DNA of 46,709 bases from Lachnospiraceae bacterium (GCA_900770325.1 CAAGKE010000112.1:1-46709), one strand, 5' to 3'. Counted from the stretch's first letter, positions 125 through 35,200 are shown. A program made the numbers and translations. The notes: generated by a model not told the origin, from the letters alone.

Positions 125-697
125 GTGGGACAGCCAAAAGGGAAGAAAAACCCGATTACGCCGCAGGAACTGGAGCTTTTCAAACGATCAGTACATATCG
201 GGGATAAGCTCAAATACCGGGAAAGAGTGTGTGATGAAATAGCCGGTGTATGCATGATTAAGTTTCGAAAAATGGAAGTTGTTGGGATATACCCACACAT
301 TGTTATTCTGCGCGGTAAGAATAAATATGGGATCACGATAGAGAGAAGCATGACCTGGCAGGAGGCTTGCATTATCAATTCGAACAGACCCCAGGAGCAT
401 TTGGATGAAGAGATCAGGAAAAGGGCAGAGTCAGATGCCAAAGGCTGTACAAAAGTAATTCTGGAATTATTTGATATGGGATTAACCAAAGTCGAAATCG
501 CAAAGCAGACAGGTTACAGCTACGATAAAGTCAAGGCCGTGACTGCCACGAGAGGAAAAAATTGTCTTAAAAAACTGGATTACGGAAAGATAATTAGCCT
601 CCGGAAGCAGGGATTTTCATACAGGGTAATTTCAGAAAAAACCGGAGCCAGTGAAAGCTCTGTCAGAAGAATATTGAAAAAGGAGAAAGTCAAATGA
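125..697 (+). CDS. DNA-binding protein with two C-terminal helix-turn-helix-like segments
   Basis: 190-aa ORF with a GTG start after GAAGGGGAG. The segments GLTKVEIAKQTGYSYDKVKAV and GFSYRVISEKTGASESSVRRILKK look like HTH motifs. The stop overlaps the next start (ATGA at 694). Confidence 0.55.
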   Translation: MGQPKGKKNPITPQELELFKRSVHIGDKLKYRERVCDEIAGVCMIKFRKMEVVGIYPHIVILRGKNKYGITIERSMTWQEACIINSNRPQEHLDEEIRKRAESDAKGCTKVILELFDMGLTKVEIAKQTGYSYDKVKAVTATRGKNCLKKLDYGKIISLRKQGFSYRVISEKTGASESSVRRILKKEKVK

Positions 698-1131
698 TTG
701 CAGATAGCGGAAATAGAACAAAGTTTTCAACAGGTGCGGTTCGTGATTGTAAGGATGGCGTTGGCAGGATGGACTTGCTTCCGATGACAGCTATTATTGA
801 GCTTTCTAAGCACTGCGAGGAAGGCGCAAAGAAATATGGGGAGCACAATGTTGATAAGGGAATCCCTCAGCATAGTCTCTGCGATTCCGGAATGAGGCAT
901 CTGGTCAAATACATGAGAGGCGATACAGACGAAGATCATCTTCGGGCGGCTTGCTGGAACCTGATGTGGGCGCTTGAACAGAGGGAAAGACGTCCTGATA
1001 TGATAGATCTGTACGGGCATGAGAGTAAAGAGAAACGACATTGCAGCAACTGTATGAATGAATACGTTTGTAACTGGGAACCGGCAAAATATAGGGGATA
1101 TTGTAAAAATTGGAAGCCAGACAAGAGGTGA
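694..1131 (+). CDS. MazG-like nucleotide pyrophosphohydrolase (dATP/dGTP diphosphohydrolase N-terminal-domain-like)
   Basis: FSTGAVRD..GRMDLLP, EEGAKKYGEHN..KGIP, RHL.KY..GDTDEDHL.A..WNL match the pattern I remember for this all-alpha NTP-PPase family. Confidence 0.65.
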   Translation: MIADSGNRTKFSTGAVRDCKDGVGRMDLLPMTAIIELSKHCEEGAKKYGEHNVDKGIPQHSLCDSGMRHLVKYMRGDTDEDHLRAACWNLMWALEQRERRPDMIDLYGHESKEKRHCSNCMNEYVCNWEPAKYRGYCKNWKPDKR

Positions 1132-1301: not shown

Positions 1302-4300
1302 ATGGATTATTTAGATTTTTTGAAAACCAAAATAGAAATCGCGGTAGACAGCGGTTTTGTTGTAGATCAGGAAGAAATTAATCCAGCACTTAAACCACAC
1401 CAGAAAGATGCAGTAATTTGGGCGTTAAAGGGCGGACGCAGGGCCTTATTTGAAAACTTTGGAATGGGAAAAACCATACAGGAAATCGAATTTTGCTATC
1501 AGGCAGTGCGCCGGTTTAGTGGTAAAGCACTGATCGTATGCCCGTTAGGAGTTAAGCAGGAGTTCCAGAGGGATGCTGTGAAGCTTCTGGGATATAAAGA
1601 ACCGGTATATGTTCGGAATATGGATGAGGTCATGGAAGCGGAAGGAGATATCCTGATTACGAATTATGAGCGTGTCAGGGATGGAGATATCCAGCCGGAT
1701 TATTTTACTGCAACAAGTCTGGATGAAGCTTCCGTCTTACGGAGTTTTGGCAGCAAGACCTATCAGACGTTCCTGGATAAATTCAAGAGTGTGCCTTACA
1801 AACTGGTAGCCACGGCAACGCCATCTCCGAACAAATACAAGGAGCTGATCCATTATGCCGGATACCTGGAAATAATGGATACAGGACAGGCGTTGACACG
1901 GTTTTTTCAAAGGGATTCCACGAAAGCGAATAACCTGACGCTGTATCCAAATCAGGAGGACGAGTTTTGGCTGTGGGTAAGTAGCTGGGCGCTGTTTATC
2001 ACAAAACCTTCAGATGTCAATCCGAAGTATTCTGATGATGGGTATGTTCTTCCGCCACTGGATGTCAGATGGCATGAACTCCCTGTACATTATGGGGACG
2101 CAACAGATCGGGATGGGCAGTTTGAATTATTCAAAGAAGCTGCAGCAGGATTAAAAGAAGCAGCACAGGTGAAACGGGAGAGCATTGATTCCAGAGTGCA
2201 GAAGATGAAAGAGATTGTGGATTCTGATCCGGATGCACATTTTATCCTCTGGCATGATCTGGAAGATGAAAGAAAAGCCATTAAGGCTGCGATACCTGAA
2301 ACGGTGGATATTTACGGGTCTCAGGATTATGAAATCCGAGAAAAGCGAGTGATTGATTTCTCAGAAGGAAAAACGAGGCTGTTTGCTACCAAGAAGGAGC
2401 TTTCCGGATCCGGGTGCAACTTCCAGAGATGCTGCCACAGAGAAATTTTCCTTGGAATTGATTATGAGTTTAATGACTTCATCCAGGCAATTCACCGGTG
2501 CTATAGATTCCTCCAGACCGAACCTGTAATTATTGACATTATCTATATGGAAAATGAGCGGCAGATTAAAGATGCATTACTGGAAAAGTGGAAAAATCAC
2601 GATCATATGGTACAGAAGATGGTCGAGATTGTTAAGAAGTACGGCCTTTCAGGAGTCGGGAAAGAAAAACGCCTGGAGCGGAAGATGGGAGTTGAAACAG
2701 TGCGAGTAAAGGGAAAGAAATACACGGCCGTACATGATGACTGTGTGGAAGAAACCAAAAGAATGGAGACTGACAGTGTTGATCTGATTCATACGTCAAT
2801 CCCGTTTGGAAACCATTATGAGTACAGCGCAAATTACAATGATTTTGGACACAACCAGAATACAGAGAGATTCTTTGAACAGATGGATTTTCTTACACCA
2901 GAACTCCTGCGCGTGCTTAAGCCAGGCAGAGTAGCAGCCATACATGTGAAGGACAGAGTGCTTTTTGGGAATACAACGGGAACTGGAATGCCAACAATAG
3001 AACCGTTCCATGCGTTATGCATTGAGCATTATATGAAACATGGTTTTCAGTATTTTGGCATGATAACGGTTGTGACAGACGTTGTGAGGGAGAACAACCA
3101 GACATACCGGCTGGGATGGACAGAACAGTGCAAGGACGGCTCAAAGATGGGTGTTGGGTGTCCGGAATACATACTTCTGTTTCGAAAATTGCCGACAGAC
3201 CGGTCAACGGCTTATGCGGATGATCCGGTGAAAAAGAGCAAGGATGAATATACCCGCGCTCAGTGGCAGATTGATGCTCATGCATATTGGCGCAGCTCAG
3301 GAGATCGGCTTGTGAGGAAAGAAGAACTTGAACAATGCTCAGTTGATAATTTACAAGCGGTTTACCGTGCATACAGCAAGGATCATGTGTACAGCTATGA
3401 AGATCATGTATCTTTGGCAAAGCATCTGGATAAAAACGGAAAGCTCCCGGCCACGTTTATGGTGGTAGCACCCGGAAGCTGGACTTGGGAAGTGTGGGAC
3501 GATATAAACCGAATGAAAACGCTCAATACAACCCAGAGCAGAAGGAGGGCGCAGCTCCATGTATGCCTTGCAGAAGGAACGTTGGTCCTGACAAAGGAAG
3601 GTTATAAACCAATCGAAAAAGTACAGGTAGGAGATTTGGTTCTGACCCATAAAGGAAACTGGAAGCCGGTTATAGCAAAGTCATGCACCGGGACAAAGGA
3701 AACTATACAGACAAAAGCGCAGGGAGTGGCAAGGCTTATAACTACACCAGAACATAAATTATGGGCAAAGAAGACGGATTACGCCAGACCAAAATATGGG
3801 CTAAATAAAGCAACCGCAGAATGGGTTGAAGCTAAAAATCTCCCTGGAGGATACTGCAACCTTAAACTTCCGAATGTGGAAGAGAGCCTACTTAATGAGC
3901 AAGAATGGTGGATTATAGGGAGATATCTTGCAGATGGTCATAAGGGAACGCGAGGAGACTTCTTTATCAGCGTCGGAAAGAGTAAAGTAGCAGAATTTGA
4001 GCAAAAGGCTGCTGGAAAATATGGTGCATGCGGGGAACGTGACGCGCTCCAGTACAGGCTAATTAACCTTAGTGAACCGCTTAAAAATATGCTTCGAAAA
4101 TGCGGACGCGGAGCGGAAAACAAACAGGTTCCTGTTGAAGGATTATGTCTTAACCGGGAATTGTCAGAAGCGTTATTAAGTGGATATTTATCAGGTGACG
4201 GAAACATAACCGGTAATTGCACATCGGCCACATCTGTATCGAGGGCTTTACTTTTGGGAATGGCAATGGTGGCTCAAAGGGCAAAAAATGTTATAGCATC

Positions 4301-4784
4301 TGTATATGCTGGAAGAGAAGAACGGGACAGCGAAATTCTTGGAAGGAAGGTGCATTGCCAGCAGGAGTGGGTAATGTCATGGAGAGATTCAGTACATCAC
4401 CACGAGGGTGAAATTATGGAAGATGGCGCATGGAAAAAAGTTAAGCAGTATGAAAAAATGGGCGTTCGCGAAGTGTGGAGCATACAAGTAGCGGATGATG
4501 CCAGCTATACCGCGGAGGGATGTATTGTAAAGAATTGTCCTCTTCAGCTAGATATCGTACAGAGAATTATCAACAGATACAGCAACGGAGGAGATCTTGT
4601 CTATGATCCGTTTGGAGGTCTTATGACGGTGCCTTACATGGCTGTAAAGATGGGGCGCAGGGGGTATGGATGTGAACTAAACCCGGATTATTTCCGGGAT
4701 GGCGTGGGGTATCTGCAGGCGGCAGAAGATGAGATTGAAGCGCCTACATTATTCGATTACATGCCGGATGTGATTGGATTATAA
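1302..4784 (+). CDS. SNF2-family helicase fused to a beta-class N6-adenine/N4-cytosine DNA methyltransferase, interrupted by an intein
   Basis: Helicase motifs are GMGKT (I), LDEAS (II), ATATPSPN (III), SGSGCNFQ (V) and QAIHRCYRFLQ (VI). Methyltransferase motif IV is DLIHTSIPFG, followed later by motif I, VYDPFGGLMT. The extein junction AQLHV/CPLQLDIVQRII restores an HxxxxP..L..R.I methylase block. Confidence 0.9.
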   Translation: MDYLDFLKTKIEIAVDSGFVVDQEEINPALKPHQKDAVIWALKGGRRALFENFGMGKTIQEIEFCYQAVRRFSGKALIVCPLGVKQEFQRDAVKLLGYKEPVYVRNMDEVMEAEGDILITNYERVRDGDIQPDYFTATSLDEASVLRSFGSKTYQTFLDKFKSVPYKLVATATPSPNKYKELIHYAGYLEIMDTGQALTRFFQRDSTKANNLTLYPNQEDEFWLWVSSWALFITKPSDVNPKYSDDGYVLPPLDVRWHELPVHYGDATDRDGQFELFKEAAAGLKEAAQVKRESIDSRVQKMKEIVDSDPDAHFILWHDLEDERKAIKAAIPETVDIYGSQDYEIREKRVIDFSEGKTRLFATKKELSGSGCNFQRCCHREIFLGIDYEFNDFIQAIHRCYRFLQTEPVIIDIIYMENERQIKDALLEKWKNHDHMVQKMVEIVKKYGLSGVGKEKRLERKMGVETVRVKGKKYTAVHDDCVEETKRMETDSVDLIHTSIPFGNHYEYSANYNDFGHNQNTERFFEQMDFLTPELLRVLKPGRVAAIHVKDRVLFGNTTGTGMPTIEPFHALCIEHYMKHGFQYFGMITVVTDVVRENNQTYRLGWTEQCKDGSKMGVGCPEYILLFRKLPTDRSTAYADDPVKKSKDEYTRAQWQIDAHAYWRSSGDRLVRKEELEQCSVDNLQAVYRAYSKDHVYSYEDHVSLAKHLDKNGKLPATFMVVAPGSWTWEVWDDINRMKTLNTTQSRRRAQLHVCLAEGTLVLTKEGYKPIEKVQVGDLVLTHKGNWKPVIAKSCTGTKETIQTKAQGVARLITTPEHKLWAKKTDYARPKYGLNKATAEWVEAKNLPGGYCNLKLPNVEESLLNEQEWWIIGRYLADGHKGTRGDFFISVGKSKVAEFEQKAAGKYGACGERDALQYRLINLSEPLKNMLRKCGRGAENKQVPVEGLCLNRELSEALLSGYLSGDGNITGNCTSATSVSRALLLGMAMVAQRAKNVIASVYAGREERDSEILGRKVHCQQEWVMSWRDSVHHHEGEIMEDGAWKKVKQYEKMGVREVWSIQVADDASYTAEGCIVKNCPLQLDIVQRIINRYSNGGDLVYDPFGGLMTVPYMAVKMGRRGYGCELNPDYFRDGVGYLQAAEDEIEAPTLFDYMPDVIGL
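3564..4535 (+). mobile_element. Intein (324 aa) with LAGLIDADG homing-endonuclease domain, in-frame inside the methyltransferase domain
   Basis: The N-terminal splice block is CLAEGTLVLTKEGYKPIEKVQVGDLVL and block B is TTPEH. The two LAGLIDADG motifs are WWIIGRYLADGH and LLSGYLSGDGNI. Block F is VWSIQVADDASYTAEG and the C-terminus is CIVKN followed by the +1 Cys (TGT at 4536). Confidence 0.85.
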
Positions 4785-4863
4785 AGCAATATACATAAAA
4801 AACAGAAAGGAGACCGGAGCCGCTGGCCAGCGTAAAGGATATCCTGGCTCCTTTCGAAACATT

Positions 4864-6033
4864 ATGGAACAATTGAGTTTTATCGATGCCGAGGAGATGG
4901 AAGTATCGGAAATCACGGAACGGACAGAAGCGGAACAGAAAGAATTTGAGGAGTGGAGGCAGAAAAAGAAGGAAGCAAAAGCGAGATTTACAGCAATGCA
5001 GAATCTACCTTATGAGGTCAAAGTAAAACGAGCAGAACTCAGAGCGATTGAGTTTGTGGAGCAGATGGACGCACGGGGATGCAATGCTCATGTGAGCGTT
5101 GGAGGATTGGATAGCATTACACTGCTTTTCTTCCTACGGCATATTGGGATTGACGTACCTGCAATATCGGTATCCGGAGTAGAGGATAAGAGCATTCAGC
5201 GTATTCATAAATTAATTGGCGTTGAGACTTTGAAATCCTACAAAACCAAAGTGGAAGTGCTGAATGAGGTAGGATTCCCAGTGATCAGCAAGAAGATTGC
5301 AGGGCGGATTGACCTATTGCAACATCCGACTCCGGATAATCAGACTGTTAGGCATGCGATTATCACAGGAGAATGCGGAGCGCAGGGACACTTCGCGAAG
5401 AACAGCCGTATGCAACTTCCGAAACGGTGGCTGGAGCTGTTTGGTGGTCCAGAAAATGAAAATGAAGGCGTGAACTATCAGACGGCACCTTTTCTGGTAT
5501 CAAATAAGTGCTGCTATTACCTGAAGGAGAAACCGTGTGATGACTGGGCAAAGGAGCATAACAGCTGGCCGTTTCTCGGAATGATGGCATCGGAAGGCGG
5601 ACAGCGGGAAGAAGCGCTGGTAGACCATGGATGCAATTATTACGGAAAGACAGTTATGAGATCAGCGCCGTTTGCTCCGTTTCTCAGACAGGATATTTTG
5701 CAGTTGGCCCTTGATCTGGATGTTCCGGTTCCGGAAATATACGGAGAAATCAGGAGAAAGCCGGATGGAACACTGTATACAACAAAGGCTCAGCGAACCG
5801 GATGCAGCATGTGCGGATTTGGGATACATATGGAACCGCGGCCACATCGGTTTGATCGGTTGCGGGAAATGAACCCTAAAGAATGGGAATTTTGGATGTA
5901 CCGTTGTTGCACAGACAAGGCAACGGGTGAGAAGTTTGGATGGGGCCGTGTGTTGGATTATATCGGAGTAGCATGGGAGGATTATCCGGTAACACAAATG
6001 AGCCTGTTTGATCTGATGGAGGCGAAGCCATGA
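4864..6033 (+). CDS. PAPS-reductase-like (adenine-nucleotide alpha-hydrolase superfamily) protein with Cys-rich C-terminal half
   Basis: The PP-loop-like motif HVSVGGLDS is followed by Cys clusters CCYYLKEKPC and GCSMCGFG. The ORF is open from a TTG at 4774, but I chose the first ATG, so the start is uncertain. Confidence 0.75.
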   Translation: MEQLSFIDAEEMEVSEITERTEAEQKEFEEWRQKKKEAKARFTAMQNLPYEVKVKRAELRAIEFVEQMDARGCNAHVSVGGLDSITLLFFLRHIGIDVPAISVSGVEDKSIQRIHKLIGVETLKSYKTKVEVLNEVGFPVISKKIAGRIDLLQHPTPDNQTVRHAIITGECGAQGHFAKNSRMQLPKRWLELFGGPENENEGVNYQTAPFLVSNKCCYYLKEKPCDDWAKEHNSWPFLGMMASEGGQREEALVDHGCNYYGKTVMRSAPFAPFLRQDILQLALDLDVPVPEIYGEIRRKPDGTLYTTKAQRTGCSMCGFGIHMEPRPHRFDRLREMNPKEWEFWMYRCCTDKATGEKFGWGRVLDYIGVAWEDYPVTQMSLFDLMEAKP

Positions 6034-7529
6034 TTAACGGAGAACTGATAGTTGATAACTTTGCCGGTGGCGGGGGAGCAAGCACCGGTATAGAGATTGC
6101 CACAGGTAAGAGCGTGGATATCGCCATAAATCATGATCCCATGGCGATTGCCCAGCACAAGGCCAATCACCCAAGCACCAAGCATTACTGCGAGTCTGTG
6201 TGGGATGTAAAACCAAAAGAGGTGTGCAAAGGTCATCCGGTGGCGCTGGCGTGGTTCTCGCCGGACTGCAAGCATTTTTCTAAGGCTAAGGGAGGAAAAC
6301 CTAAGGACAAGAATATTCGCGGCCTCGCGTGGGTAGCGCTCCGCTGGGCGGCGATTGTCCGACCGAGGGTGATTATGCTGGAGAATGTAGAGGAATTCAA
6401 GGACTGGGGGCCGCTAAACCGCGGGCACCGTCCGATTAAGGCAAAGAAAGGTGTGACATTCCGGAAGTTTGTCAGTCAACTGGAAGATCTGGGATATGTT
6501 GTGGAGCACAGGGAACTGGTTGCAGCTGATTACGGAGCGCCAACTACCAGAAAGCGGTTCTTCCTGATTGCCAGATGCGACGGCAAGCCGATTGTCTGGC
6601 CAGAGCCGACACATGGCCCGCGTGAATCGGATAAGGTCAAATCAGGTATCCTGAAACCTTATGTCGGAGCATATACGCAGATTGATTTCAGCCTTCCGTG
6701 TCCCAGCATTTTTGACAGCAAAGAGGAGATCAAGCAGAAGTACGGAATTAAGGCACAGAGACCTCTTGCAGAAAAAACCATGCAGAGGATTGCCAGAGGG
6801 CTAAAAAAGTTCGTGATGTATAATCCGGAGCCGTTTATTGTGACAGTAAATCACGGAGGAGAGCGAGCACCAAGAGACGTCAAAGATCCGATGCCGACTA
6901 TCACTGGAAAGCATGGCTTTGGAATAATTGTTCCCACACTGATACAGTACCATTCAGAGACTGTTAGCGGTGAAGTTCGTGGGCAGAAACTGGACGAGCC
7001 TATAATGACGGTGGACGGAAGCAACCGATATGGACTAACAATCGCATATCTGGTGCAATTTAATAATCATTGTGACGGTCGTGATATGAGGGACCCCATA
7101 CCGACAATAACCGCAGGAGATGGGCATTTTGGAGAGGTCAGGGCTTTTTGTGTTAAATATTACGGACAGGGCACCGGGCAGGATATTAAAGACCCTCTGG
7201 ACACGATCACAGCCAATGACCGGTTCGGGCTTGTGACGGTTAATAGCATTGATTACGCCATCGTAGATATCGGTCTGCGGATGTTGGAGCCGAAAGAGTT
7301 GTATGGTTGTCAGGGATTCCCTGAAGATTACATAATTGACCGGGACTACACCGGGAAGCCTTATCCGAGGTCAGAGCAGGTGAAGCGCTGCGGTAATGCT
7401 GTCTGCCCACCGATACCGGCGGCACTGGTAAAAGCAAATCTACCAGAGATCTGTAAAGCTCACAGAATGCCCATATGCAGACCGGACAGAGTGATGCAAG
7501 AGGATTCTGGGCAAATAAGGTTTGCATAG
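6030..7529 (+). CDS. DNA (cytosine-5)-methyltransferase
   Basis: Motif I DNFAGGGGAS, motif IV FSPDCKHFS, motif VI IMLENV, LEPKELYGCQGFPEDY, motif X GNAVCPP. The ATGA start overlaps the upstream stop. Confidence 0.9.
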   Translation: MINGELIVDNFAGGGGASTGIEIATGKSVDIAINHDPMAIAQHKANHPSTKHYCESVWDVKPKEVCKGHPVALAWFSPDCKHFSKAKGGKPKDKNIRGLAWVALRWAAIVRPRVIMLENVEEFKDWGPLNRGHRPIKAKKGVTFRKFVSQLEDLGYVVEHRELVAADYGAPTTRKRFFLIARCDGKPIVWPEPTHGPRESDKVKSGILKPYVGAYTQIDFSLPCPSIFDSKEEIKQKYGIKAQRPLAEKTMQRIARGLKKFVMYNPEPFIVTVNHGGERAPRDVKDPMPTITGKHGFGIIVPTLIQYHSETVSGEVRGQKLDEPIMTVDGSNRYGLTIAYLVQFNNHCDGRDMRDPIPTITAGDGHFGEVRAFCVKYYGQGTGQDIKDPLDTITANDRFGLVTVNSIDYAIVDIGLRMLEPKELYGCQGFPEDYIIDRDYTGKPYPRSEQVKRCGNAVCPPIPAALVKANLPEICKAHRMPICRPDRVMQEDSGQIRFA

Positions 7530-7539
7530 GAGGATATAA

Positions 7540-8523
7540 ATGATTATTGGACTTCATGACGCAGAAAAGGAGCATTTTAAGAGCAAAAATTTCCCGAATT
7601 TGGCCCTTATGAAAATATCTGCTTGGCATAAAGCTCAGGGAGATACTGTTGAGTGGTGGAATCCGTTGTACCGTTATGATCGGGTGTACAGCAGCAAGGT
7701 ATTCGATTTTACGCCAGTTGACCCTTATCTGCCGGAAGATGCAATAAGGGGAGGCACAGGATACAGTGATCTGCCAATGAACCGAGAACTACCACCAGAG
7801 ATCGATGAAATGTACCCGGATTATTCTATTTATCCTGATTGCGATTATGCCATTGGATATCTGACACGTGGATGCCCAAATCATTGTAGATGGTGCGTAG
7901 TGCCGAAAAAAGAGGGCACGATAAGACCATATCGGAGCTGGAAGGATGTTGTAAGGCATGACACGGACAAGTTGGTGTTGATGGATAATAACATACTGGC
8001 TTGTGAATACGGAATTGAGCAGCTGGAGAGCTTGATCGGGAGCGGACATCGCATTGATCTCAATCAAGGGATGGATGCAAGGTTGGTAGATGACAGGATA
8101 GCATTTATTCTGTCGCAGCTCCAGTGGATCCGGTTTATCAGGTTCTCCTGCGATCAGAAATCTCAGATTGAGCCAATCAGACGCACGATAGAGTTTCTGG
8201 ATAAATATGGTGTTCGTCCGTATCGAATTTTTATATACCTTCTGGTGACGACTGATATCCAGGACGCTTCAGACCGTGTGGAATCGCTGAAAATGTATAG
8301 AGGGATAAATCTGTACGCGCAGGCAGAGCGAAATGAACGTATGGGAATTATGCCGAATGAAATGCAATTAGAGTTCCAGCAGCGTTATATGTACGGAGGA
8401 TGTTACCGGACAGAAACATGGAGGGAATATTGTCAGAGAAAAAGAATTGGGAGAACTAAGAATGAATGTTTGAAGGAGACGGAAGATTATGAAGGTAAAA
8501 ATCGAACCCAGAAACAAGACTGA
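7540..8523 (+). CDS. radical SAM protein
   Basis: CxxxCxxC cluster GCPNHCRWCVVP. The N-terminal FPNLALMKISAWHKAQGDTVEWW resembles the B12-binding-like lead domain of class-B-like radical SAM enzymes. RBS is AGGAGGA. Confidence 0.8.
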   Translation: MIIGLHDAEKEHFKSKNFPNLALMKISAWHKAQGDTVEWWNPLYRYDRVYSSKVFDFTPVDPYLPEDAIRGGTGYSDLPMNRELPPEIDEMYPDYSIYPDCDYAIGYLTRGCPNHCRWCVVPKKEGTIRPYRSWKDVVRHDTDKLVLMDNNILACEYGIEQLESLIGSGHRIDLNQGMDARLVDDRIAFILSQLQWIRFIRFSCDQKSQIEPIRRTIEFLDKYGVRPYRIFIYLLVTTDIQDASDRVESLKMYRGINLYAQAERNERMGIMPNEMQLEFQQRYMYGGCYRTETWREYCQRKRIGRTKNECLKETEDYEGKNRTQKQD

Positions 8524-12452: not shown

Positions 12453-12761
12453 ATGAAAGAGAAAATCGAGGCTCTGGTCAATCAGTCGTTGGAAAATGAC
12501 AAGGTAAGACCACCGAGAAGTAATTTTGAATCATGCGCCTTTGCATTTTGTGAATTTGAAAAAGTCGAGGGAAAGCATGAGGAAGTGCGATCGGCCATAA
12601 AGAACGCATGGAAGTCAACGACATCCGGAGCCAAAAAGGATACAATCGAAATCAGATTCAGAACCATTTACAAGGTATCCTTGGAATTGGCAGTGAAGGC
12701 AGTGGAGCTGGCAATCATGGCGCAGCGCATTCTACAGACTGTGAAGGAGGAACGGAAGTGA
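12453..12761 (+). CDS. hypothetical protein
   Basis: ATG after GAGGAGGG. 102 aa. Confidence 0.65.
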   Translation: MKEKIEALVNQSLENDKVRPPRSNFESCAFAFCEFEKVEGKHEEVRSAIKNAWKSTTSGAKKDTIEIRFRTIYKVSLELAVKAVELAIMAQRILQTVKEERK

Positions 12762-13399
12762 GAGATACCATGAAAGAATATCTCATACAGGGCGCGGAAT
12801 TTGTGGGAGAATTTGGGATGCCCCAGTTAATCCCGGTACATATCGTAGAGGAACCGAAAAACCCGATTCCGTATGGCAGCGGTAAGTCGTGCAAGAATCC
12901 CAGGGAATCAATTCTTCATTTCTTTGTTGATGATGAAAAATTTACCGGGATATGGAGCGACCCTGATAAATACTTAGGCCTTCTTCAGATGTTCCAATAT
13001 GTCTGCACGCCGGATTTTTCCATGTATGCGGATATGCCAAGAGCTATGCAGATCTGGAATTGTTACCGGAATCGGGCGCTGGCCTATTATCTCCAGAAGA
13101 ATGGGGTAAACATCATACCTACTGCCGGCTGGAGTGATAGAGGAAGCTTTAAATGGTGTTTTGATGGGCTGCCCAGTGAGAGCGCCATAGCGGTAAGCAA
13201 TAACGGGTGTTTATCCGAAAAAGGGAGGCTTTATTTTGAATTGGGTATGCGCTTCCTAATTGCCACATTGAAGCCTGAGCGAATTATTCTGATCGGAAAG
13301 CCCATTGAGCAAGGAACTTTTGGGGACATTCCGATAGTTTGTCTGGACGGATTCAGCCAGCAGATGCGAAAAAGAATGGAGGCCCAAAATGGGAGGTAG
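12758..13399 (+). CDS. DUF4417-like protein
   Basis: GTG start 7 nt after AAGGAGG, with a GTGA overlap. LHFFVDDEKF..W..P, TPDFSMYADMP...QIWN.YRNRA..YYLQKNG.N.IPT..W resembles what I remember of DUF4417. Confidence 0.7.
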   Translation: MRDTMKEYLIQGAEFVGEFGMPQLIPVHIVEEPKNPIPYGSGKSCKNPRESILHFFVDDEKFTGIWSDPDKYLGLLQMFQYVCTPDFSMYADMPRAMQIWNCYRNRALAYYLQKNGVNIIPTAGWSDRGSFKWCFDGLPSESAIAVSNNGCLSEKGRLYFELGMRFLIATLKPERIILIGKPIEQGTFGDIPIVCLDGFSQQMRKRMEAQNGR

Positions 13400-25137: not shown

Positions 25138-26574
25138 GTGGGAACCCCAATAAGAACAAGAAACTATCATAAACGGGAAAATTTGTTCGGTCGCAGGGTT
25201 TATTTTACAGATGAGGAAAGCATTACAAGAAAAAATGTGGTGGAAGTCTTAAATAAAGCTCTTGTGCACCACAATATAAACCGGTCTGAAATTGAATATT
25301 TGGATAATTACTATCGCGGAGACCAGCCTATTCTTTATCGCGTGAAAAAGGTTCGGCCAGAGATCAATAATAAGATTGTTGAAAATTTCGCCCTTGATGC
25401 GGTCAATTTCCATACTGCGCAGAATTATGGAGAGCCAATTCAGTATGTCAACGCTTCGCCGGACAAAGATATCTCCAAAGAAATCAATATGTTAAATTCC
25501 CTGATGCGGCTGGAAAATAAAGCATATTGGGACATTGAGCTTGGAACCTGGCAAAACATCGCCGGCACAGCATACCGTTTTGTTCTTCCGGACAGATCGG
25601 CAAACATCAAAGATAGCGAGTGTCCGTTTACCCTGGACGTGCTTGACCCGAGATTTGCCTTTGTGGTCTATTCTAAACGGATAGGTAAAAAAGCAGCTAT
25701 GGGCGTCCGAATCATTGAAAACGAGAAAGACGGAGACATCTATGAGTGCTACACCAGGCAGTATAGATGGAGGATACAGGGCGGGAAAATCATTCAGGAA
25801 AAAATCAATCCTCTTAATGCAATCCCCATTATTGAGTATCCAAAGAACAGCCGGCGGATGGGCGTCATAGAAATGACGATCACCATTACGGACGCCATGA
25901 ACACAGCAACTTCCAATCGTCTTGATGGAATTGAACAGTTCGTACAGGCGTTTATGAAGTTTGTAAACTGTAAAATTGACAAGGACAAGTTCCTTGAAAT
26001 GGTACAGCTTGGTGCGGTCACTGTAAAAGGAGAACCGGGGCTTCCTGCGGATGTGGATGTCGTATCTTCTCAGCTTGACCAGAGCCAGACCCAGGTAACA
26101 AAAGATGATCTGTATAAATCCTACCTGATTGTGCAGGGAATGCCGTCCAGGGAACAGAATACCGGCGGTGATACGGGTTCTGCGGTTTATTTGAGAAATG
26201 GATGGGATTTCGCTGAAAAAAGGGAAGAGATAGGAGAACCGATTGATAAGAAATCCGAAATGGAATTTCTTAAGGTGGTTACGAAAATTCTTCGGAATTA
26301 CGATATTCTTGATATACAACTGAAAGATATTGATGTCAATATCACCAGAAACAAAACGGACAATATGCTGGTGAAATCGCAGGCGCTTCAGATTCTTTTG
26401 GACTGCGGCGTGGATGACGAAACAGCATTGGCAATCGTACAGCTTTTCTCTGATCCGCAGAAGGTATATGCAAAATCTAAGGATCGGATGCAGAATCGGT
26501 ATGATTCAAAATTTAATAAAGATATAGGAGGCGGCAATATTGCAATCCAAGAAAAAGGAACTGCCTCTGGTTGA
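25138..26574 (+). CDS. portal protein (SPP1 gp6-like)
   Basis: IEYLDNYYRGDQPILYR.K..RPEINNKIVENFA and its size and position after terL. GTG start after GAGGTGAG. Confidence 0.9.
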   Translation: MGTPIRTRNYHKRENLFGRRVYFTDEESITRKNVVEVLNKALVHHNINRSEIEYLDNYYRGDQPILYRVKKVRPEINNKIVENFALDAVNFHTAQNYGEPIQYVNASPDKDISKEINMLNSLMRLENKAYWDIELGTWQNIAGTAYRFVLPDRSANIKDSECPFTLDVLDPRFAFVVYSKRIGKKAAMGVRIIENEKDGDIYECYTRQYRWRIQGGKIIQEKINPLNAIPIIEYPKNSRRMGVIEMTITITDAMNTATSNRLDGIEQFVQAFMKFVNCKIDKDKFLEMVQLGAVTVKGEPGLPADVDVVSSQLDQSQTQVTKDDLYKSYLIVQGMPSREQNTGGDTGSAVYLRNGWDFAEKREEIGEPIDKKSEMEFLKVVTKILRNYDILDIQLKDIDVNITRNKTDNMLVKSQALQILLDCGVDDETALAIVQLFSDPQKVYAKSKDRMQNRYDSKFNKDIGGGNIAIQEKGTASG

Positions 26575-27803: not shown

Positions 27804-28886
27804 ATGCCAGCATTACCGTTAAATGAAGCATTTACGGCCAGAGCTATTGGTTTGTTCTGGAATTCCTACCAGCAGACCCTTGGCTTACCGCCATATCTGG
27901 GAAGCACATTATTCCCGAAAAATAAAACTCCGCTGATGGATCTTAAGTGGTTCTATGGAGCGAGTGGGCTTCCTGTTTCCCTTACTCCATCCAATTACGA
28001 TGCTCAGGCAACCTTAAGAGACCGTATCGGATTCAACCAGATCGAGACGGAAATGCCGTTTTTCCGTGAGTCTTATCTGGTAAAAGAGAAGGATGCAGCC
28101 GAGTACGAGAAGCTGATGAATTCCGATGAAGCATATGTTGCTGAACTGATGCGGCGAATCATGATCGGGCCGACTGATCTGATTCAGGGTGCAAATGTGG
28201 TGCCGGAGAGAATGATCTGGCAGCTGCTTGCTCCGGAAGACGGATCTCCAAAGATTGCGATCTCTGCCAACGGAGTGAACTACGACTACAATTATGACCC
28301 AAACGGCGAGTATAAGACCAACAACTTCATGGAGCTGACGTCTTCTACCGATAAATGGACAGATACCGAAAATTCTGACCCTTACGAGGATTTAAGGGCT
28401 GCCCAGAAGGCTCACAAGAAGAAGTACGGAACCGTTCCTTCGGTTGCAGTAATGAACGATAATACGTTCCAGCTGATCGTGAAGAACAAGAAAATTCATA
28501 ATTACCTTCTGGCTCAGAACATGAGCGCAAACATCATGGTGACAGATGCGATTGTGAAGCAGTTTTTCAGAGAGCAGTTAAAGCTTACCATTTACGTATA
28601 TGATCTGATGTACATGAATGAATCCAAAGTATCCAAGACGTTTGTTCCGGACAATGTAGTTACACTTCTTCCGGGAACCAGCGCACTGGGAAATACCTGC
28701 TATGGCCGTACTCCTGAGGAGCGTTCCGGAAATCAGTCTACAGGAGAGCTGAGCATCGTGGATACTGGTGTAGCGCTGTATACCTATACGGAGCCTCATC
28801 CGCTTAAGACCCACTGCATCTGTTCCGAGATCGTTCTCCCAACCTATGAGAGAATCATGGATACCTACGTGATGAAGGTAGCTTAA
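27804..28886 (+). CDS. major capsid protein (lambda gpE family)
   Basis: KTFVPDNVVTLLPGTSALGNTCYG parallels lambda gpE's KNFLPDNTMVLGNTQARGLRTYG. 360 aa. Confidence 0.85.
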   Translation: MPALPLNEAFTARAIGLFWNSYQQTLGLPPYLGSTLFPKNKTPLMDLKWFYGASGLPVSLTPSNYDAQATLRDRIGFNQIETEMPFFRESYLVKEKDAAEYEKLMNSDEAYVAELMRRIMIGPTDLIQGANVVPERMIWQLLAPEDGSPKIAISANGVNYDYNYDPNGEYKTNNFMELTSSTDKWTDTENSDPYEDLRAAQKAHKKKYGTVPSVAVMNDNTFQLIVKNKKIHNYLLAQNMSANIMVTDAIVKQFFREQLKLTIYVYDLMYMNESKVSKTFVPDNVVTLLPGTSALGNTCYGRTPEERSGNQSTGELSIVDTGVALYTYTEPHPLKTHCICSEIVLPTYERIMDTYVMKVA

Positions 28887-31895: not shown

Positions 31896-32251
31896 GAAGC
31901 TTCAAGGATGCAATTTATCAAATATGGCTGCCTCAGGCAATCTTTCTGGGAATCCCGGAAGAACGCTTTTGGCAGCTGAATCCTCGCAAAATGAAGCCTT
32001 GGAAACGGGCGCATGAACTTCGCTTAGACTATGATGATTTTAAGGCATGGATTTCCGGACAGTATATCATGATGGCCGTAAATGCGGCGTGGAATGGGAA
32101 AGCTGATGTTTACCCGAAACAGCCGTTCGGTCAGATGAAAGATGCTCAGGAGAATCCAGAAAACCATGACTATCAGTTGGATGCATTGAAGTTCTTGCAG
32201 TATTGCAAGGCTATGGACGATGAATTTGATGATTTAACAAAGAAAAAATAG
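31458..32251 (+). CDS. tail assembly chaperone GT, made by -1 programmed frameshift at 31820-31826
   Basis: The downstream ORF is in the -1 frame relative to G and overlaps it. The join is 31458..31826 plus 31826..32251. Confidence 0.7.
31820..31826 (+). promoter_or_regulatory. slippery heptamer T TTT TTA for the G/GT -1 frameshift
   Basis: In the zero frame, GAT TTT TTA reads X XXY YYZ. The -1 reading gives FFIKDDGRAG..., which matches the second ORF. Confidence 0.7.
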
Positions 32252-32268
32252 TGTACCGCAGTGTACCA
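32251..32268 (+). promoter_or_regulatory. late-region motif copy 4 (GTGTACCGCAGTGTACCA)
   Basis: Identical to copy 3. It starts at the last base of the GT stop codon. Confidence 0.6.
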
Positions 32269-32288
32269 CCGGAAGGCTGGTGGTATAC
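32261..32288 (+). promoter_or_regulatory. 10-bp hairpin built on motif copy 4, SD-like loop, ending 1 nt before the tape-measure GTG
   Basis: GTGTACCACC (32261-70) pairs with GGTGGTATAC (32279-88), with one G-U pair. The loop is GGAAGGCT. Confidence 0.6.
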
Positions 32289-32289
32289 C

Positions 32290-35200
32290 GTGGGAGCTAC
32301 TATTGAAGAGTTAAGTATTGATATCGTTTCGAATCTTGGGGATGCTGACAAGGCGCTCGATCGTCTTTCAAACAGCCTTTCCAGAATGTCAAATACGCTT
32401 GGCGGTTTTGATACCGGCAAGCTTTTTGGCATTTCCAATGGAATTTCCAGCTTAAGTGGTGCAATGCGTGGAATCCAGTCTGTTAAGACCACGGATTTTA
32501 CGAGGATAGCCAATGGTATTTCCAAATTAAGCGCCGCAGATGGTTCGAAGCTTTCTGCAATTGGGCAGGGAATGCAGAGAATGGCAGCCGGCATGCAGAA
32601 CATAAGCGGCGTAGCTTCAGCAGCATCCAATATTGCAACTGCGGCATCTGGAATAGCAAAGTTCGGCGGCGTAAAGGTTAATGCTGCTGTTGGGAACATT
32701 AATGCGCTTGCTCCAGCGCTGACTGCGCTCAATAGCTCTGTAGCGAATTTGGGGCAGTTCCCGGACATTTCCCAGTTTGTCACAACAATTTCGAAACTGG
32801 GTAATAAATCCGTAGGAAATGCAATCAGCAATCTTCCGAATCTGGCAAATGCCCTTAATCAAGCTATGCAGACGCTTTCCACGGCTCCTAAGGTAAGCCA
32901 GAACGTCATTTCTCTGACAAATGCACTGGCGAATCTTGCGGCGCAGGGCGGCAGGGCCAGAACGGCGGCAGCGGGTCTTTCCACAGCATTGAACGGAATA
33001 TCAACGTCCAGTAGGCGGGGAGTTTCCGGGGTAAATTCCTTTACGTCGAGTATCCGGAACTTACTGGGGGCTGCGGGTATTTATCTTGGAATCCGTCAGC
33101 TGATGCAATTTGGAAAGCAGTGCCTTGAATTTGGTTCCAGTCTCACTGAGGTGCAGAATGTTGTTGATGTTGCTTTTGGCAACATGGCAAACGCCGCAAA
33201 TAATTTTGCCGCGAATAATGCGCAAAAGTTTGGACTGTCTGAACTGGCTGCGAAACAGTACAGCGGCGTTTTAAAGGCCATGTACAATTCTCTGGGTGTT
33301 AACAATGCGCAGGGAACAGAAATGGCCCTTGGGCTGACCAGTCGCGCCGGTGATCTGGCTTCTTTCTACAATATCGATTCAAAAGACGCTTTCGCAAAAA
33401 TCCGGTCTGCGGTATCTGGTGAGACAGAGCCAATGAAGCAGCTGGGCGTCAATATGAATGTGGCGAACCTGAATGCCTATGCTCTGTCAAATGGTTTCGG
33501 GAAACTGTACGACAAAATGAGCTTGGCAGAACAGGCCATGCTCCGGTATCAGTACATTATGTCCACGACAAACCAGGTATCTGGCGATTTTGAACGTACG
33601 TCCGGCTCTTTTGCAAACCAGTTGAGGATTTTGCAGCTGAATTTCCAGTCATTCTCAGCAACGATGGGACAGGGCTTTATTAATGTGATCGTCCATGTTA
33701 TCAGCGCCCTTAATTCCCTCCTCGCACATCTTCAGACGGTTGCCAATGCTTTCCGCGCCTTTACTGCGCTCATTTTTGGCGATAACTCTGCGCAGGCTGG
33801 GGGCGGTGGAATCGCAGATGAAATTACGGGCGCTGCCGGTGCTGCGGATAATCTGGCAAATAATCTGGGTGGAGCTTCAAAGGCTGCAAAAGAACTGAAG
33901 AATGCCACAATGGGCATTGATGAATTGAATATTGTTTCTCAGGATGATACCAGCGGATCAGGCAGCGGCGGAGCTGGAGGCGTCGGCGGCGCGGCAGTAG
34001 ATTATGGAACGTTGAGTGAGGGCACAAGTTTTATTGATGATCTCAACTCAAAGCTTTCAGAGATGCTGGATCTTCTGGAACCTACCACCAATGCGCTGAA
34101 AAAATTGTGGGATGAAGGTCTGTCAAAATTAAAGGACTTCACATTTGGCACACTTCAGGATTTCTATGACAAGTTCCTTAAACCTGTGGGACTGTGGACA
34201 TTAAGTGAGGAAGGCTTGCCCCGGTTTATCAATATCACCAATGATATGTTAAACCGGATTAATTGGACACGGTTACAGGATAGCTTACGGAGGTTTTACG
34301 AACAGCTGGCAAGGCTCACAAAACTGGTATTTACAAGTTTACTTGATTTTTACGAAGAGTTTTTAGTCCCGATTGCCGCATGGACTTTAGGTGACGCTTT
34401 ACCACGTTTAATTGATGTTATTACAAATCTTTCAGAAAATATAAACTGGGAAGGGCTTGTATCCTCTCTTAAGAATTTGTATGAAGCCCTGTCTTATTTT
34501 GCCATAGGCATAGGAGAGGGGCTGGTATCCTTTGTTGAGGGTTTGGCTAGGGTACTTACTCCTGCAATCAGCGGAGCGGTAGATTTGCTGTCAAAGGCCC
34601 TGAATGGTATTGCTGATGCTATAAAGTTAATTCCGGAAGGAACGTTGGCTGCTGTTGGCGGAGCTATCGGAGGGCTGGCAACAGCAATTCTGGCTTTCAA
34701 TGGAATTTCTGCAGCTATTACAGCGATTGAAAATGCAGGAAAAGCCTTCAGCGGGCTTTTGGCAGCTGCGGCGGCAAATCCTGTGCTTGCGTTGGCAGGG
34801 GCGTTAGGTGCGCTTGCAGGTGCCTTTATTGCCATGGAACAGAATTGGTCAAACCAGGTGGCAGAACAGTTCTTGCAGTTCCAGCAGAGCATAGGCTCAA
34901 ACACTTCGGATGTGCAGGCGGCTGCGGATTCGCTCTATGAGCTGGCAGACAGCAGTTCCAGAATTGTAGCATCAGCAGAAGCAGATGCAAAGCAGTTAGA
35001 TACGCTGAAAGAAGCATATTTCAGGTTGGCTGACCAAACCTATTTAACAGCTCAGGATCAGATTGAATTAAAAGAATATGCACAGCAGCTGATTGATAAA
35101 TGCCCTGAATTAAAGAGCATGATCGATCAGACTACGGGACGATATTCAGCGCAACGAGAAGAGCTTGAGAAAGTTATCAAAAAACACGAAGATTACATGA

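Follow-up and report, generated by a model that had tools for sequence, protein, structure and literature searches.

What is the 324-residue segment that lies in frame within the helicase/methyltransferase gene discussed here, and what does its presence mean for the enzyme that carries it? The window, which is the whole stretch of 46,709 nucleotides analyzed from a Lachnospiraceae bacterium, contains terminase, portal, major head and tape-measure genes, indicating a phage origin. An initial annotation had read positions 3564-4535 as a LAGLIDADG intein embedded in a fusion of a phage SNF2 helicase and a DNA methyltransferase. The gene and its parts are listed below in window coordinates; the limits of the three intein subdomains are approximate where they abut.

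1302..4784, +: precursor gene, an SNF2-like helicase / N6-N4 DNA methyltransferase fusion plus intein, 1160 aa (ORF list; Pfam)
1302..3563, +: N-extein, aa 1-754 (Pfam; phrog_16 'DNA helicase' profile positions 257-849)
1398-1853, +: SNF2-like ATPase within the N-extein, aa 33-184 (Pfam)
1458-1481, +: GMGKT of the SNF2-like ATPase
1716-1739, +: DEAS of the SNF2-like ATPase
2796..2807, +: methyltransferase motif IV, S-I-P-F, aa 499-502 (aligned with SPPY of TTHA0409, 2zie, and DPPY of CcrM)
3564..4535, +: intein, 324 aa (aa 755-1078), class 1, with a LAGLIDADG endonuclease domain (gap in intein-less homologues; Pfam Hint_2; AF2; Foldseek)
3564..3875, +: N-terminal Hint (splicing) half of the intein (gp41-1 intein alignment; limit approximate, from the secondary structure of the model)
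3564-3566, +: Cys1 of the intein, invariant
3564-3602, +: CLAEGTLVLT segment with Cys1
3630-3650, +: GDLVLTH of the intein
3735-3764, +: block B, LITTPEHKLW, with T61-x-x-H64 (T61 and H64 invariant)
3876..4319, +: LAGLIDADG homing-endonuclease domain (Foldseek; weak Pfam LAGLIDADG_3; limits approximate)
3906-3947, +: LAGLIDADG motif 1, WWIIGRYLADGHKG, with Asp124, intein aa 115-128
4170-4208, +: LAGLIDADG motif 2, ALLSGYLSGDGNI, with Asp212, intein aa 203-215
4320..4535, +: C-terminal Hint half of the intein (DnaX mini-intein alignment; residue tabulation)
4467-4520, +: block F, REVWSIQVADDASYTAEG
4521-4535, +: block G, CIVKN, with penultimate Lys323 and terminal Asn324, followed by Cys at 4536
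4536..4784, +: C-extein, aa 1079-1160 plus stop (phrog_16 positions 850-925; TTHA0409 and MboIIA alignments)
4536-4538, +: Cys+1, invariant
4536-4580, +: motif X-like helix of the C-extein, CPLQLDIVQRIINRY (TTHA0409 and MboIIA alignments)
4596-4628, +: motif I of the C-extein, LVYDPFGGLMT (TTHA0409 and MboIIA alignments)

The 1160-residue ORF contains matches to the Pfam families SNF2-rel_dom, N6_N4_Mtase and Hint_2, each above its own cut-off. The SNF2-rel_dom match scores 33 bits (cut-off 24.9), with both GMGKT and DEAS present. A Helicase_C match at aa 334-403 of the N-extein is weak, at 14-15 bits, below the cut-off of 23.5. The methyltransferase begins in the N-extein, which encodes its first three quarters and with them motif IV, where S-I-P-F is a variant equivalent of (D/S)PP(Y/F). 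The order of elements is motif IV, target-recognition region, motif X and motif I, the last reading DPFGGLMT, as in the beta-class N6/N4 DNA methyltransferases, and in the spliced protein the PF01555 match covers positions 1-217 of 221 in the profile (E 8e-19). The Pfam matches, phrog_16 and the surrounding phage genes thus bear out the host proposed initially, a phage SNF2-like ATPase joined to a beta-class N6/N4 methyltransferase. The precursor has a calculated mass of 132.6 kDa, the spliced product one of 96.7 kDa and the intein one of 36.0 kDa; the first two agree with the earlier estimates of about 133 and about 96 kDa. A PADLOC scan returned generic methyltransferase matches and a faint DpdE match for the N-extein and nothing for the two neighboring genes scanned, and therefore does not tie the gene to a known defense system. 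A literature search found no characterized helicase-methyltransferase fusion of this type.

The boundaries of the segment are defined by comparison with homologues. The 99%-identical P0001 and about 120 homologues of the ORF were found, in a sample ranked by total bit score and biased accordingly. Some 70 homologues without the intein (extein identity 83-89%) show a gap that corresponds exactly to aa 755-1078; these proteins read ...QMHV^CPLQLDIV..., where the caret marks the junction. PHROG profile 16 (phrog_16) is contiguous over this point, with the N-extein ending at profile position 849 and the C-extein starting at 850. Deleting aa 755-1078 converts two N6_N4_Mtase pieces into one match (57.6 to 68.8 bits) over profile positions 1-217 of 221, so the flanks form a single methylase profile. 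Most close homologues lack these residues altogether, which rules out an ordinary domain conserved throughout the family. The two sequence-level outcomes that the initial annotation had named as refuting it, a segment shared by all family members and flanks that fail to join, were thus both checked and did not occur. The in-frame insert, the Hint fold, and the Cys1 and Asn-Cys termini likewise rule out a group I intron harboring a free-standing endonuclease gene.

The insertion site lies in the cofactor-binding (AdoMet) region of the methyltransferase, about 20 residues before motif I (DPFGG). In alignments, the counterpart of HV^CPLQLDIVxRII is HPAPFPLELAERLV in TTHA0409 and HITPKPRDLIERII in M.MboIIA. 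Two details of the initial annotation change. It had described the catalytic region as being split, and the catalytic motif IV, SIPF, is located 252 residues upstream of the site; it had also expected the junction to regenerate a literal H-x-x-x-x-P, and the joined sequence reads H-V-C-P-L-Q.

The segment itself contains every intein hallmark quoted in that annotation: Cys1, block B, two LAGLIDADG motifs, block F, and CIVKN followed by Cys. The Hint_2 match scores 35.2 bits (cut-off 28.4, E 1.9e-8). Cys1, Thr61, His64, Asp212, Asn324 and Cys+1 are invariant in all 38 diverse homologues, which extend down to 28% identity, and Asp124 is present in 37 of the 38. Among 49 family sequences, every one keeps Cys1, Thr61 and His64, as well as both Asp124 and Asp212. 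Other models respond less strongly: Pfam Intein_splicing, Pfam LAGLIDADG_3 and NCBIfam intein_Nterm all score below cut-off on this intein, and a PDB sequence search with it gave marginal matches only (gp41-1 at E 0.009).

The AlphaFold (AF2) model of the intein, calculated from a 38-sequence alignment, has a pLDDT of 95.7 and a pTM of 0.93; a single-sequence run gave a pLDDT of 31 and was unusable. Among PDB matches to the model, Foldseek ranks full-length inteins with an endonuclease domain highest: TliVMA (E 4e-16, TM 0.69), PI-SceI, PhoVMA, PI-PfuI and PI-PkoII. I-DmoI-type endonucleases (I-DmoI, I-Tsp061I) and mini-inteins follow at lower rank, and hedgehog Hint domains are matched as well. 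Helices 112-124 and 198-212 of the model fall at the two LAGLIDADG motifs, and the intein is accordingly predicted to combine a Hint fold with a monomeric two-motif LAGLIDADG fold. The segment at 3564-4535 is a genuine intein with exactly these boundaries: the Hint_2 E-value, the precise gap in the homologues and the Foldseek match to LAGLIDADG inteins place the assignment far beyond chance.

The five solved inteins, TliVMA (7qsu), PI-SceI (1vde), PhoVMA (7qst), PI-PfuI (1dq3) and PI-PkoII (2cw7), share with the window intein a bipartite Hint domain with a two-motif LAGLIDADG insertion (Foldseek E 4e-16 to 3e-9, TM at most 0.69), as well as Cys1, TxxH, terminal Asn and Cys+1. The window intein is only 9-17% identical to them and smaller (the targets have 366-537 residues), and it contains neither the extra DNA-recognition region of PI-SceI nor the stirrup domain of PI-PfuI. 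It also differs from all five in having a penultimate Lys and in missing the block-F Asp and His.

A much closer relative is already in the literature. In cluster F mycobacteriophages, Kelley et al. 2016 (mBio; PMC5050341) catalogued an intein named DNMT-1, carried by Job42 gp69, Pacc40 gp60, Brocalys gp61 and BuzzLyseyear gp72; the inteins assayed in that work were those of TerL and RDF. Our tblastn match in Job42 spans 47357-48349, the same coordinates as given for DNMT-1 in Table S2 of that paper. Job42 gp69 is the same helicase/N6_N4 methylase fusion (N-extein 54% and C-extein 61% identical to those of the window) and is interrupted at the identical point, QMHV^CLA...VVKN^CPLQ, with a penultimate Lys in both. 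The two LAGLIDADG inteins are 45% identical (331 aa in DNMT-1, 324 aa here). The hosts differ, being Mycobacterium for DNMT-1 and Lachnospiraceae/Clostridia for the window phage. An intein at the HV^C...KN^CPLQ site has therefore been published before, and the window contributes a Lachnospiraceae-phage member of a known allele. These relatives surfaced at the protein level only; a megablast search of the phage collection with the gene as query gave no match. A near-identical phage is present in a Bariatricus MAG, and homologues bear Lachnospiraceae and Lacrimispora names.

We consider it very probable that the element is a class 1 intein with a LAGLIDADG endonuclease, positioned in the AdoMet-binding region of a phage helicase/methyltransferase and orthologous to DNMT-1; it is predicted to splice and to cleave DNA. 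Following established intein chemistry, translation would yield the 132.6-kDa precursor, in which an N-S acyl shift at Cys755 (C1), helped by Thr815 and His818 of block B, would precede transfer of the N-extein to Cys1079 (+1). Cyclization of Asn1078 would then free the 36-kDa intein, and an S-N shift would produce the 96.7-kDa helicase-methyltransferase with ...QLHV-CPLQLDIV... restored. The unspliced methyltransferase is probably inactive, because its cofactor-binding fold is predicted to be broken 20 residues before motif I. Methylation would on this basis depend on splicing, as originally suggested, and it is a reasonable inference that a putative phage self-protection would as well. The freed intein, or the precursor, may act as a site-specific LAGLIDADG endonuclease against intein-less alleles in co-resident phages or prophages, with recombinational repair copying the intein into the cleaved gene (homing).

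Several features of the distribution bear on homing. The intein occurs sporadically among the homologues; the window extein is 89% identical to empty alleles and 61-81% identical to other occupied alleles; and the divergence of the intein hardly tracks that of the extein (rho 0.22). This pattern fits homing. The nearest empty alleles read CAGATGCATGTT^TGCCCTTTGCAG, and candidate empty sites are found at L001 ~8286 and L002 ~8262. Rather less likely is that the intein splices but is a vertically inherited passenger, its endonuclease inactive or lacking targets. In favor of this, we saw no co-conversion tract between the window and its nearest empty alleles (73% identity over 30 nt around the junction, 77% gene-wide). 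Near-identical copies also occur within one phage type; one 12% cluster, for instance, contains 19 proteins. Against a passenger, both LAGLIDADG aspartates are kept throughout the family, and conservation of the endonuclease domain matches that of the splicing halves and the extein (mean pairwise identity 65% compared with 65% and 62%, the extein being at 67%). No mini-intein derivative was found among about 75 full-length relatives, which span 324-331 aa, and the window extein nests among empty alleles rather than occupied ones.

The splicing center departs from the usual class 1 arrangement at three assisting positions, with Ser306 in place of the block-F Asp, Ala313 in place of the block-F His and Lys323 in place of the penultimate His. 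These three residues are usual in class 1 inteins and are not obligatory. Because all three differ, splicing could be slow or condition-dependent. The initial annotation was correct that Lys replaces the penultimate His and might make splicing atypical; the residue is not peculiar to the present copy, Lys being the majority state across the whole clade, with His, Gln and Ala also found. The block-F Asp position is N, S, D or C within the clade, and the block-F His position E, A or H. Assignment to class 3 is ruled out by the absence of a WCT motif, the invariant Cys1, and a block-F position that is S, N or D (C in only 3 of 38). Lys at the penultimate position was already noted in phage inteins by Kelley et al. 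2016 (PMC5050341), and functional inteins lacking a penultimate His are documented in that paper and in Chen, Benner and Perler 2000, cited there.

These substitutions invite the idea that the intein splices slowly or only under certain conditions and so delays or gates the methyltransferase after translation, for example by redox state. Cys320, conserved in the clade and located near Cys1 and Cys+1, would suit such a role, as would an insertion site within one of the host enzyme's functional motifs. In another phage intein, Kelley et al. (PMC5050341) showed with the RDF G316H variant that the accumulation of precursor is tuned by the penultimate residue. We regard this as doubtful. Lys, His, Gln and Ala all occur at the penultimate position, at the same site and in close relatives, and this free variation argues against a specialized role; intein-less alleles are also common and evidently functional.

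A broader form of the idea takes in inteins in phage C5-cytosine methyltransferases (such as Propionibacterium phage B22 gp50, Lactobacillus phage Nyseid, Pseudomonas phage Lana, and metagenomic P0146-P0173). These belong to the same lineage (28-37% full-length identity), share the block-F signature V-Y/W-x-I/L-x-V-E/A-E/D-D-x-S-Y/F, and are likewise hosted by phage DNA methyltransferases. They differ in host family (PF00145), in having the canonical penultimate His, and in their site, motif IV, GFP^C...HN^CQD, from which it follows that the +1 Cys is the PCQ cysteine. The present intein might be one branch of a lineage specialized on phage DNA methyltransferases, which occupies the N6/N4 HV^CPLQ site in hosts that include actinobacteria, clostridia and cyanobacteria, and the PCQ cysteine of C5 enzymes, with Lys, the missing block-F Asp and His, and Cys320 making splicing conditional. 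This is a speculative proposal to which we give little weight; if true, the methyltransferase would be switched on post-translationally at a particular stage of infection or redox state.

A decayed, non-splicing insertion or a cleave-only Hint/BIL-type domain, leaving the methyltransferase part dead, would account for the sub-threshold scores of the curated intein models and the three substituted auxiliary residues but is highly improbable, given that relatives 28-99% identical all keep Cys1, TxxH, the terminal Asn and Cys+1, motif I of the C-extein is intact and conserved, and the frame is kept across actinobacterial, clostridial and other hosts.

A further methylase intein, from the actinophage Dorothy (Dorothy_75), is described by Gosselin et al. 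2023 (PMC9957025). About 327 residues long and equipped with a LAGLIDADG domain, it interrupts a phage N6_N4 methylase, is patchily distributed and shows evidence of horizontal transfer. It is probably the DNMT-2 of Kelley et al. Its site differs (IAWLYG^C...TGN^SGF), its methylase family is unrelated at the BLASTP level, and membership in the present family is ruled out by the lack of any BLASTP match to the window protein, intein or extein.

The locus opens no new category and will be unsurprising to a specialist. The limits of the intein and the domains of its host protein are now correctly and precisely annotated, and an intein-less allele is available as reference. The DNMT-1 allele extends from cluster F mycobacteriophages to phages of gut Clostridia and of other phyla at one conserved site, providing a clean example of inter-phylum intein spread via phage methyltransferases. 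The natural K, H, Q and A series on a conserved scaffold could help in studying how the penultimate residue tunes Asn cyclization.

The methyltransferase gene contains an in-frame intein that starts with CLAEGTLVLT and ends with CIVKN followed by Cys. It includes LITTPEHKLW, two LAGLIDADG-type motifs (WWIIGRYLADGHKG and ALLSGYLSGDGNI) and REVWSIQVADDASYTAEG. By calculation, the precursor weighs 132.6 kDa, the spliced product 96.7 kDa and the intein 36.0 kDa. Neither GC content nor skews set the intein segment apart from its flanks.

Features of the intein-bearing gene
1302..4784, + strand, precursor ORF, 1160 aa
3564-4535, + strand, intein in frame with ORF 1302..4784 (aa 755-1078, 324 aa)
aa 499-502, methyltransferase motif IV, S-I-P-F
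aa 1102-1109, methyltransferase motif I, DPFGGLMT

Five independent tests (family models, profile repair, contiguous flanks, empty alleles and structure) agree that the segment is an intein, and its assignment as a class-1 LAGLIDADG intein is very probably correct. Pfam Hint_2 matches it at 35.2 bits (gathering score 28.4), with weak matches to Intein_splicing, LAGLIDADG_3 and Hom_end_hint and a sub-threshold match to NCBIfam intein_Nterm. Pfam N6_N4_Mtase matches the full protein in two pieces (57.6 bits); without aa 755-1078, it gives a single match spanning profile positions 1-217 of 221 (68.8 bits). The N-extein follows the PHROG profile phrog_16 up to position 849 and the C-extein resumes at 850. 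A search of 5.8 billion proteins with the window protein, whose list was ordered by total score and is therefore biased, returned about 50 intein-bearing homologues of 1155-1194 aa, three longer ones and about 70 intein-less homologues of 829-881 aa. At the junction (marked here and below by a slash) the short proteins read ...RRRAQMHV/CPLQLDIVE..., and the alignment gap corresponds exactly to aa 755-1078. An AlphaFold model of the intein, built on a 38-sequence intein alignment, has a mean pLDDT of 95.7 and a pTM of 0.93. Its closest PDB match is TliVMA (7qsu, E 4e-16, TM 0.69), followed by PI-SceI, PhoVMA, PI-PfuI and PI-PkoII, all full-length endonuclease-containing inteins; free-standing LAGLIDADG enzymes (I-Tsp061I, I-DmoI), mini-inteins and the hedgehog Hint domain rank lower. 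The exact gap, Hint_2, the repaired profile and the predicted fold thus bear out the intein proposed in the initial annotation, and its overall interpretation needs only the minor corrections to insertion site and penultimate residue described below.

The N-terminal part of the host protein matches SNF2-rel_dom above the cut-off and contains GMGKT and DEAS; Helicase_C is weakly matched. The methyltransferase is of the beta class, with motif IV first and motif I last. The junction QLHV/CPLQLDIVQRII aligns with KDHPAPFPLELAERLV of TTHA0409 (2zie) and THITPKPRDLIERII of M.MboIIA (1g60), so the intein lies in a conserved segment about 20 residues upstream of motif I. In beta-class enzymes this segment is part of the AdoMet-binding half (motif X). 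The insertion is outside catalytic motif IV and not, as initially annotated, in the catalytic region. The unspliced precursor would probably lack methyltransferase activity.

Residues C1, T61, H64, D212, G213, N324 and Cys+1 are invariant in the 38-sequence alignment, where identity falls to 28%, and D124 is kept in 37 of the 38. All 49 inteins of the helicase-methylase family have C1, T61, H64, D124, D212 and N324. The invariant Cys1 and the absence of a WCT triplet rule out class 3, which leaves class 1. Block F is collinear with the canonical VYDLTVEGNHNFVANG, with Ser306 in place of the usual Asp and Ala313 in place of the usual His; D312 and S314 are nearly invariant across the clade, in which position 306 is N, S, D or C and position 313 is E, A or H. 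The unusual penultimate Lys (Lys323, for His) remarked on earlier is present, but this position is K, H, Q or A across the clade and Lys is therefore a variable clade-level feature rather than a peculiarity of one copy. Gly, Lys or Ser often replace the penultimate His in phage class-1 inteins, and in another intein this residue tunes precursor accumulation (Kelley et al. 2016, PMC5050341). The window intein is likely to splice.

A tblastn search of 50,697 phage records shows that this helicase/methylase fusion is also found in cluster F mycobacteriophages, for example Job42, Pacc40, Dante, Squirty, Brocalys and BuzzLyseyear. The Job42 match to the N-extein stops at 47356, and that to the intein begins at 47357. 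Job42 gp69 (1170 aa) is 54% identical to the window protein in the N-extein, 45% in the intein (331 aa) and 61% in the C-extein, and its junctions, QMHV/CLA... and ...VVKN/CPLQ, are identical to those of the window, penultimate Lys included. This intein (47357-48349) is listed as ‘DNMT-1’, with seven inteins in clusters F1 and F3 (Kelley et al. 2016, Table S2); the splicing assays in that study covered the TerL and RDF inteins only. Because site and host protein are the same, the window intein is a newly found member of this published allele, in a different host phylum. The Dorothy_75 methylase intein (Gosselin et al. 2023, PMC9957025) is not of this family: its methylase is unrelated and its site different. 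RefSeq names the mycobacteriophage proteins ‘anaerobic ribonucleoside reductase large subunit’ (NC_021538.1, Job42 gp69; NC_011287.1, Pacc40 gp60; NC_028946.1; others); the GenBank originals read DNA methylase or helicase. The reductase name was probably transferred via intein similarity: the intein is matched by phrog_26446 and shares 31% identity with NrdD inteins of Lactococcus 949-like phages.

With the intein alone as query, inteins 44-63% identical were found at the same H[ILV]/C...N/CPLQ site in shorter N6_N4 methyltransferases, including one Micromonospora and one cyanobacterial protein. Others, 28-37% identical, interrupt motif IV of C5-cytosine methyltransferases (P0146-P0173) at GFP/C...HN/CQD, where the PCQ cysteine is thus the +1 residue; cultured carriers include Propionibacterium phage B22 (NC_041891.1, gp50), Lactobacillus phage Nyseid (NC_047925.1) and Pseudomonas phage Lana (NC_048166.1). 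A TraG/VirD4-like protein and a terminase are single cases. Together, the two sites suggest a lineage of inteins tied to phage DNA methyltransferases. P0137 (300 aa, encoded on a 16.6-kb contig) is a free-standing relative, 40% identical to the intein along almost all of its length. It begins MF-GIAHDSLVLT and ends CAVKG, with neither Cys1 nor terminal Asn, and may be an intein-derived endonuclease that is decaying or has been domesticated.

If the near-identical P0001 is set aside, intein-less alleles are the nearest to the window extein (83-89% identity); the exteins of alleles that also carry the intein reach only 61-81%. The inteins are 54-71% identical to that of the window, and these values do not follow extein identity: homologue P0049 scores 64.7% in the extein and 71.3% in the intein, P0002 80.7% and 61.9%, and the correlation is weak (Spearman 0.22, 28 non-redundant members). 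The endonuclease domain is as conserved (mean pairwise identity 65%) as the two splicing halves (65% and 62%) and the extein (67%), and no mini-intein derivatives were seen among intein-bearing relatives. These comparisons agree with a homing element in which selection still acts on the endonuclease, and it is plausible that the endonuclease is active. Two points temper this reading: the homologue list is biased by its ranking, and the DNA around the window junction shows no co-conversion tract. The two closest empty alleles belong to other phage genomes, where the neighbours differ, and both read ...CAGATGCATGTT/TGCCCTTTGCAGCTG... at the site. Inteins 58% and 65% identical fill the site in MAGs labelled Prevotella sp. 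(JAFSRY010000004.1) and Clostridiaceae, whose assigned phyla are very far apart; the Prevotella label could reflect either wide spread or a binning error.

Some homologues carry other inserts. The 1510-aa P0042 has a second in-frame insert (347 aa, aa 504-850) directly after motif IV (window 2796-2810), TSIPF/CYDEETEVLT...TPNH...WYLAEGH...MKGDGS...CISGN/SNHYEY, with intein-like hallmarks and Ser+1. Pfam gives no match to this insert; phrog_85 covers its first 91 residues (4e-12), and the AceL NrdHF intein (E 0.009) and PI-PkoII (E 0.07) match weakly. The intein-bearing P0031 (1313 aa) has a 154-aa insert, EYHHWQEYKDG...KPMRAL, in the helicase part after the equivalent of window aa 334, which does not look intein-like.

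The window is phage DNA, and around the intein-bearing gene it groups several genes with possible roles in DNA or nucleotide modification.

Phage genes and possible modification genes in the window
694-1131, PF18909 dATP/dGTP-diphosphohydrolase-like gene
4774-6033, PAPS-reductase-like gene (phrog_424), overlapping the methylase stop by 11 nt
6030-7529, C5 methyltransferase, 499 aa
7540-8523, radical SAM gene (CPNHCRWC, phrog_9298)
12608-13399, DUF4417 protein gene
22747-24366, large terminase
25138-26574, portal
27804-28886, major head protein
32251-37092, tape measure

The region recurs at 97% identity in a Bariatricus sp. (Lachnospiraceae) MAG, and the named homologues of the window protein are from Lachnospiraceae and Lacrimispora. 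The phage probably infects a gut Clostridia bacterium. The Bariatricus copy (JBJENH010000187.1; about 97% nucleotide identity) is the same phage with two stretches absent, and is either a natural deletion variant without the modification genes or an assembly artefact. The second absent stretch (window 7529-8481) corresponds to the radical SAM gene. The first (3724-7097) starts inside the intein, of which it removes most, and runs through the C-extein and the PAPS-reductase-like gene into the C5 methyltransferase, three quarters of which is missing; its junction shows an imperfect 19-nt microhomology.
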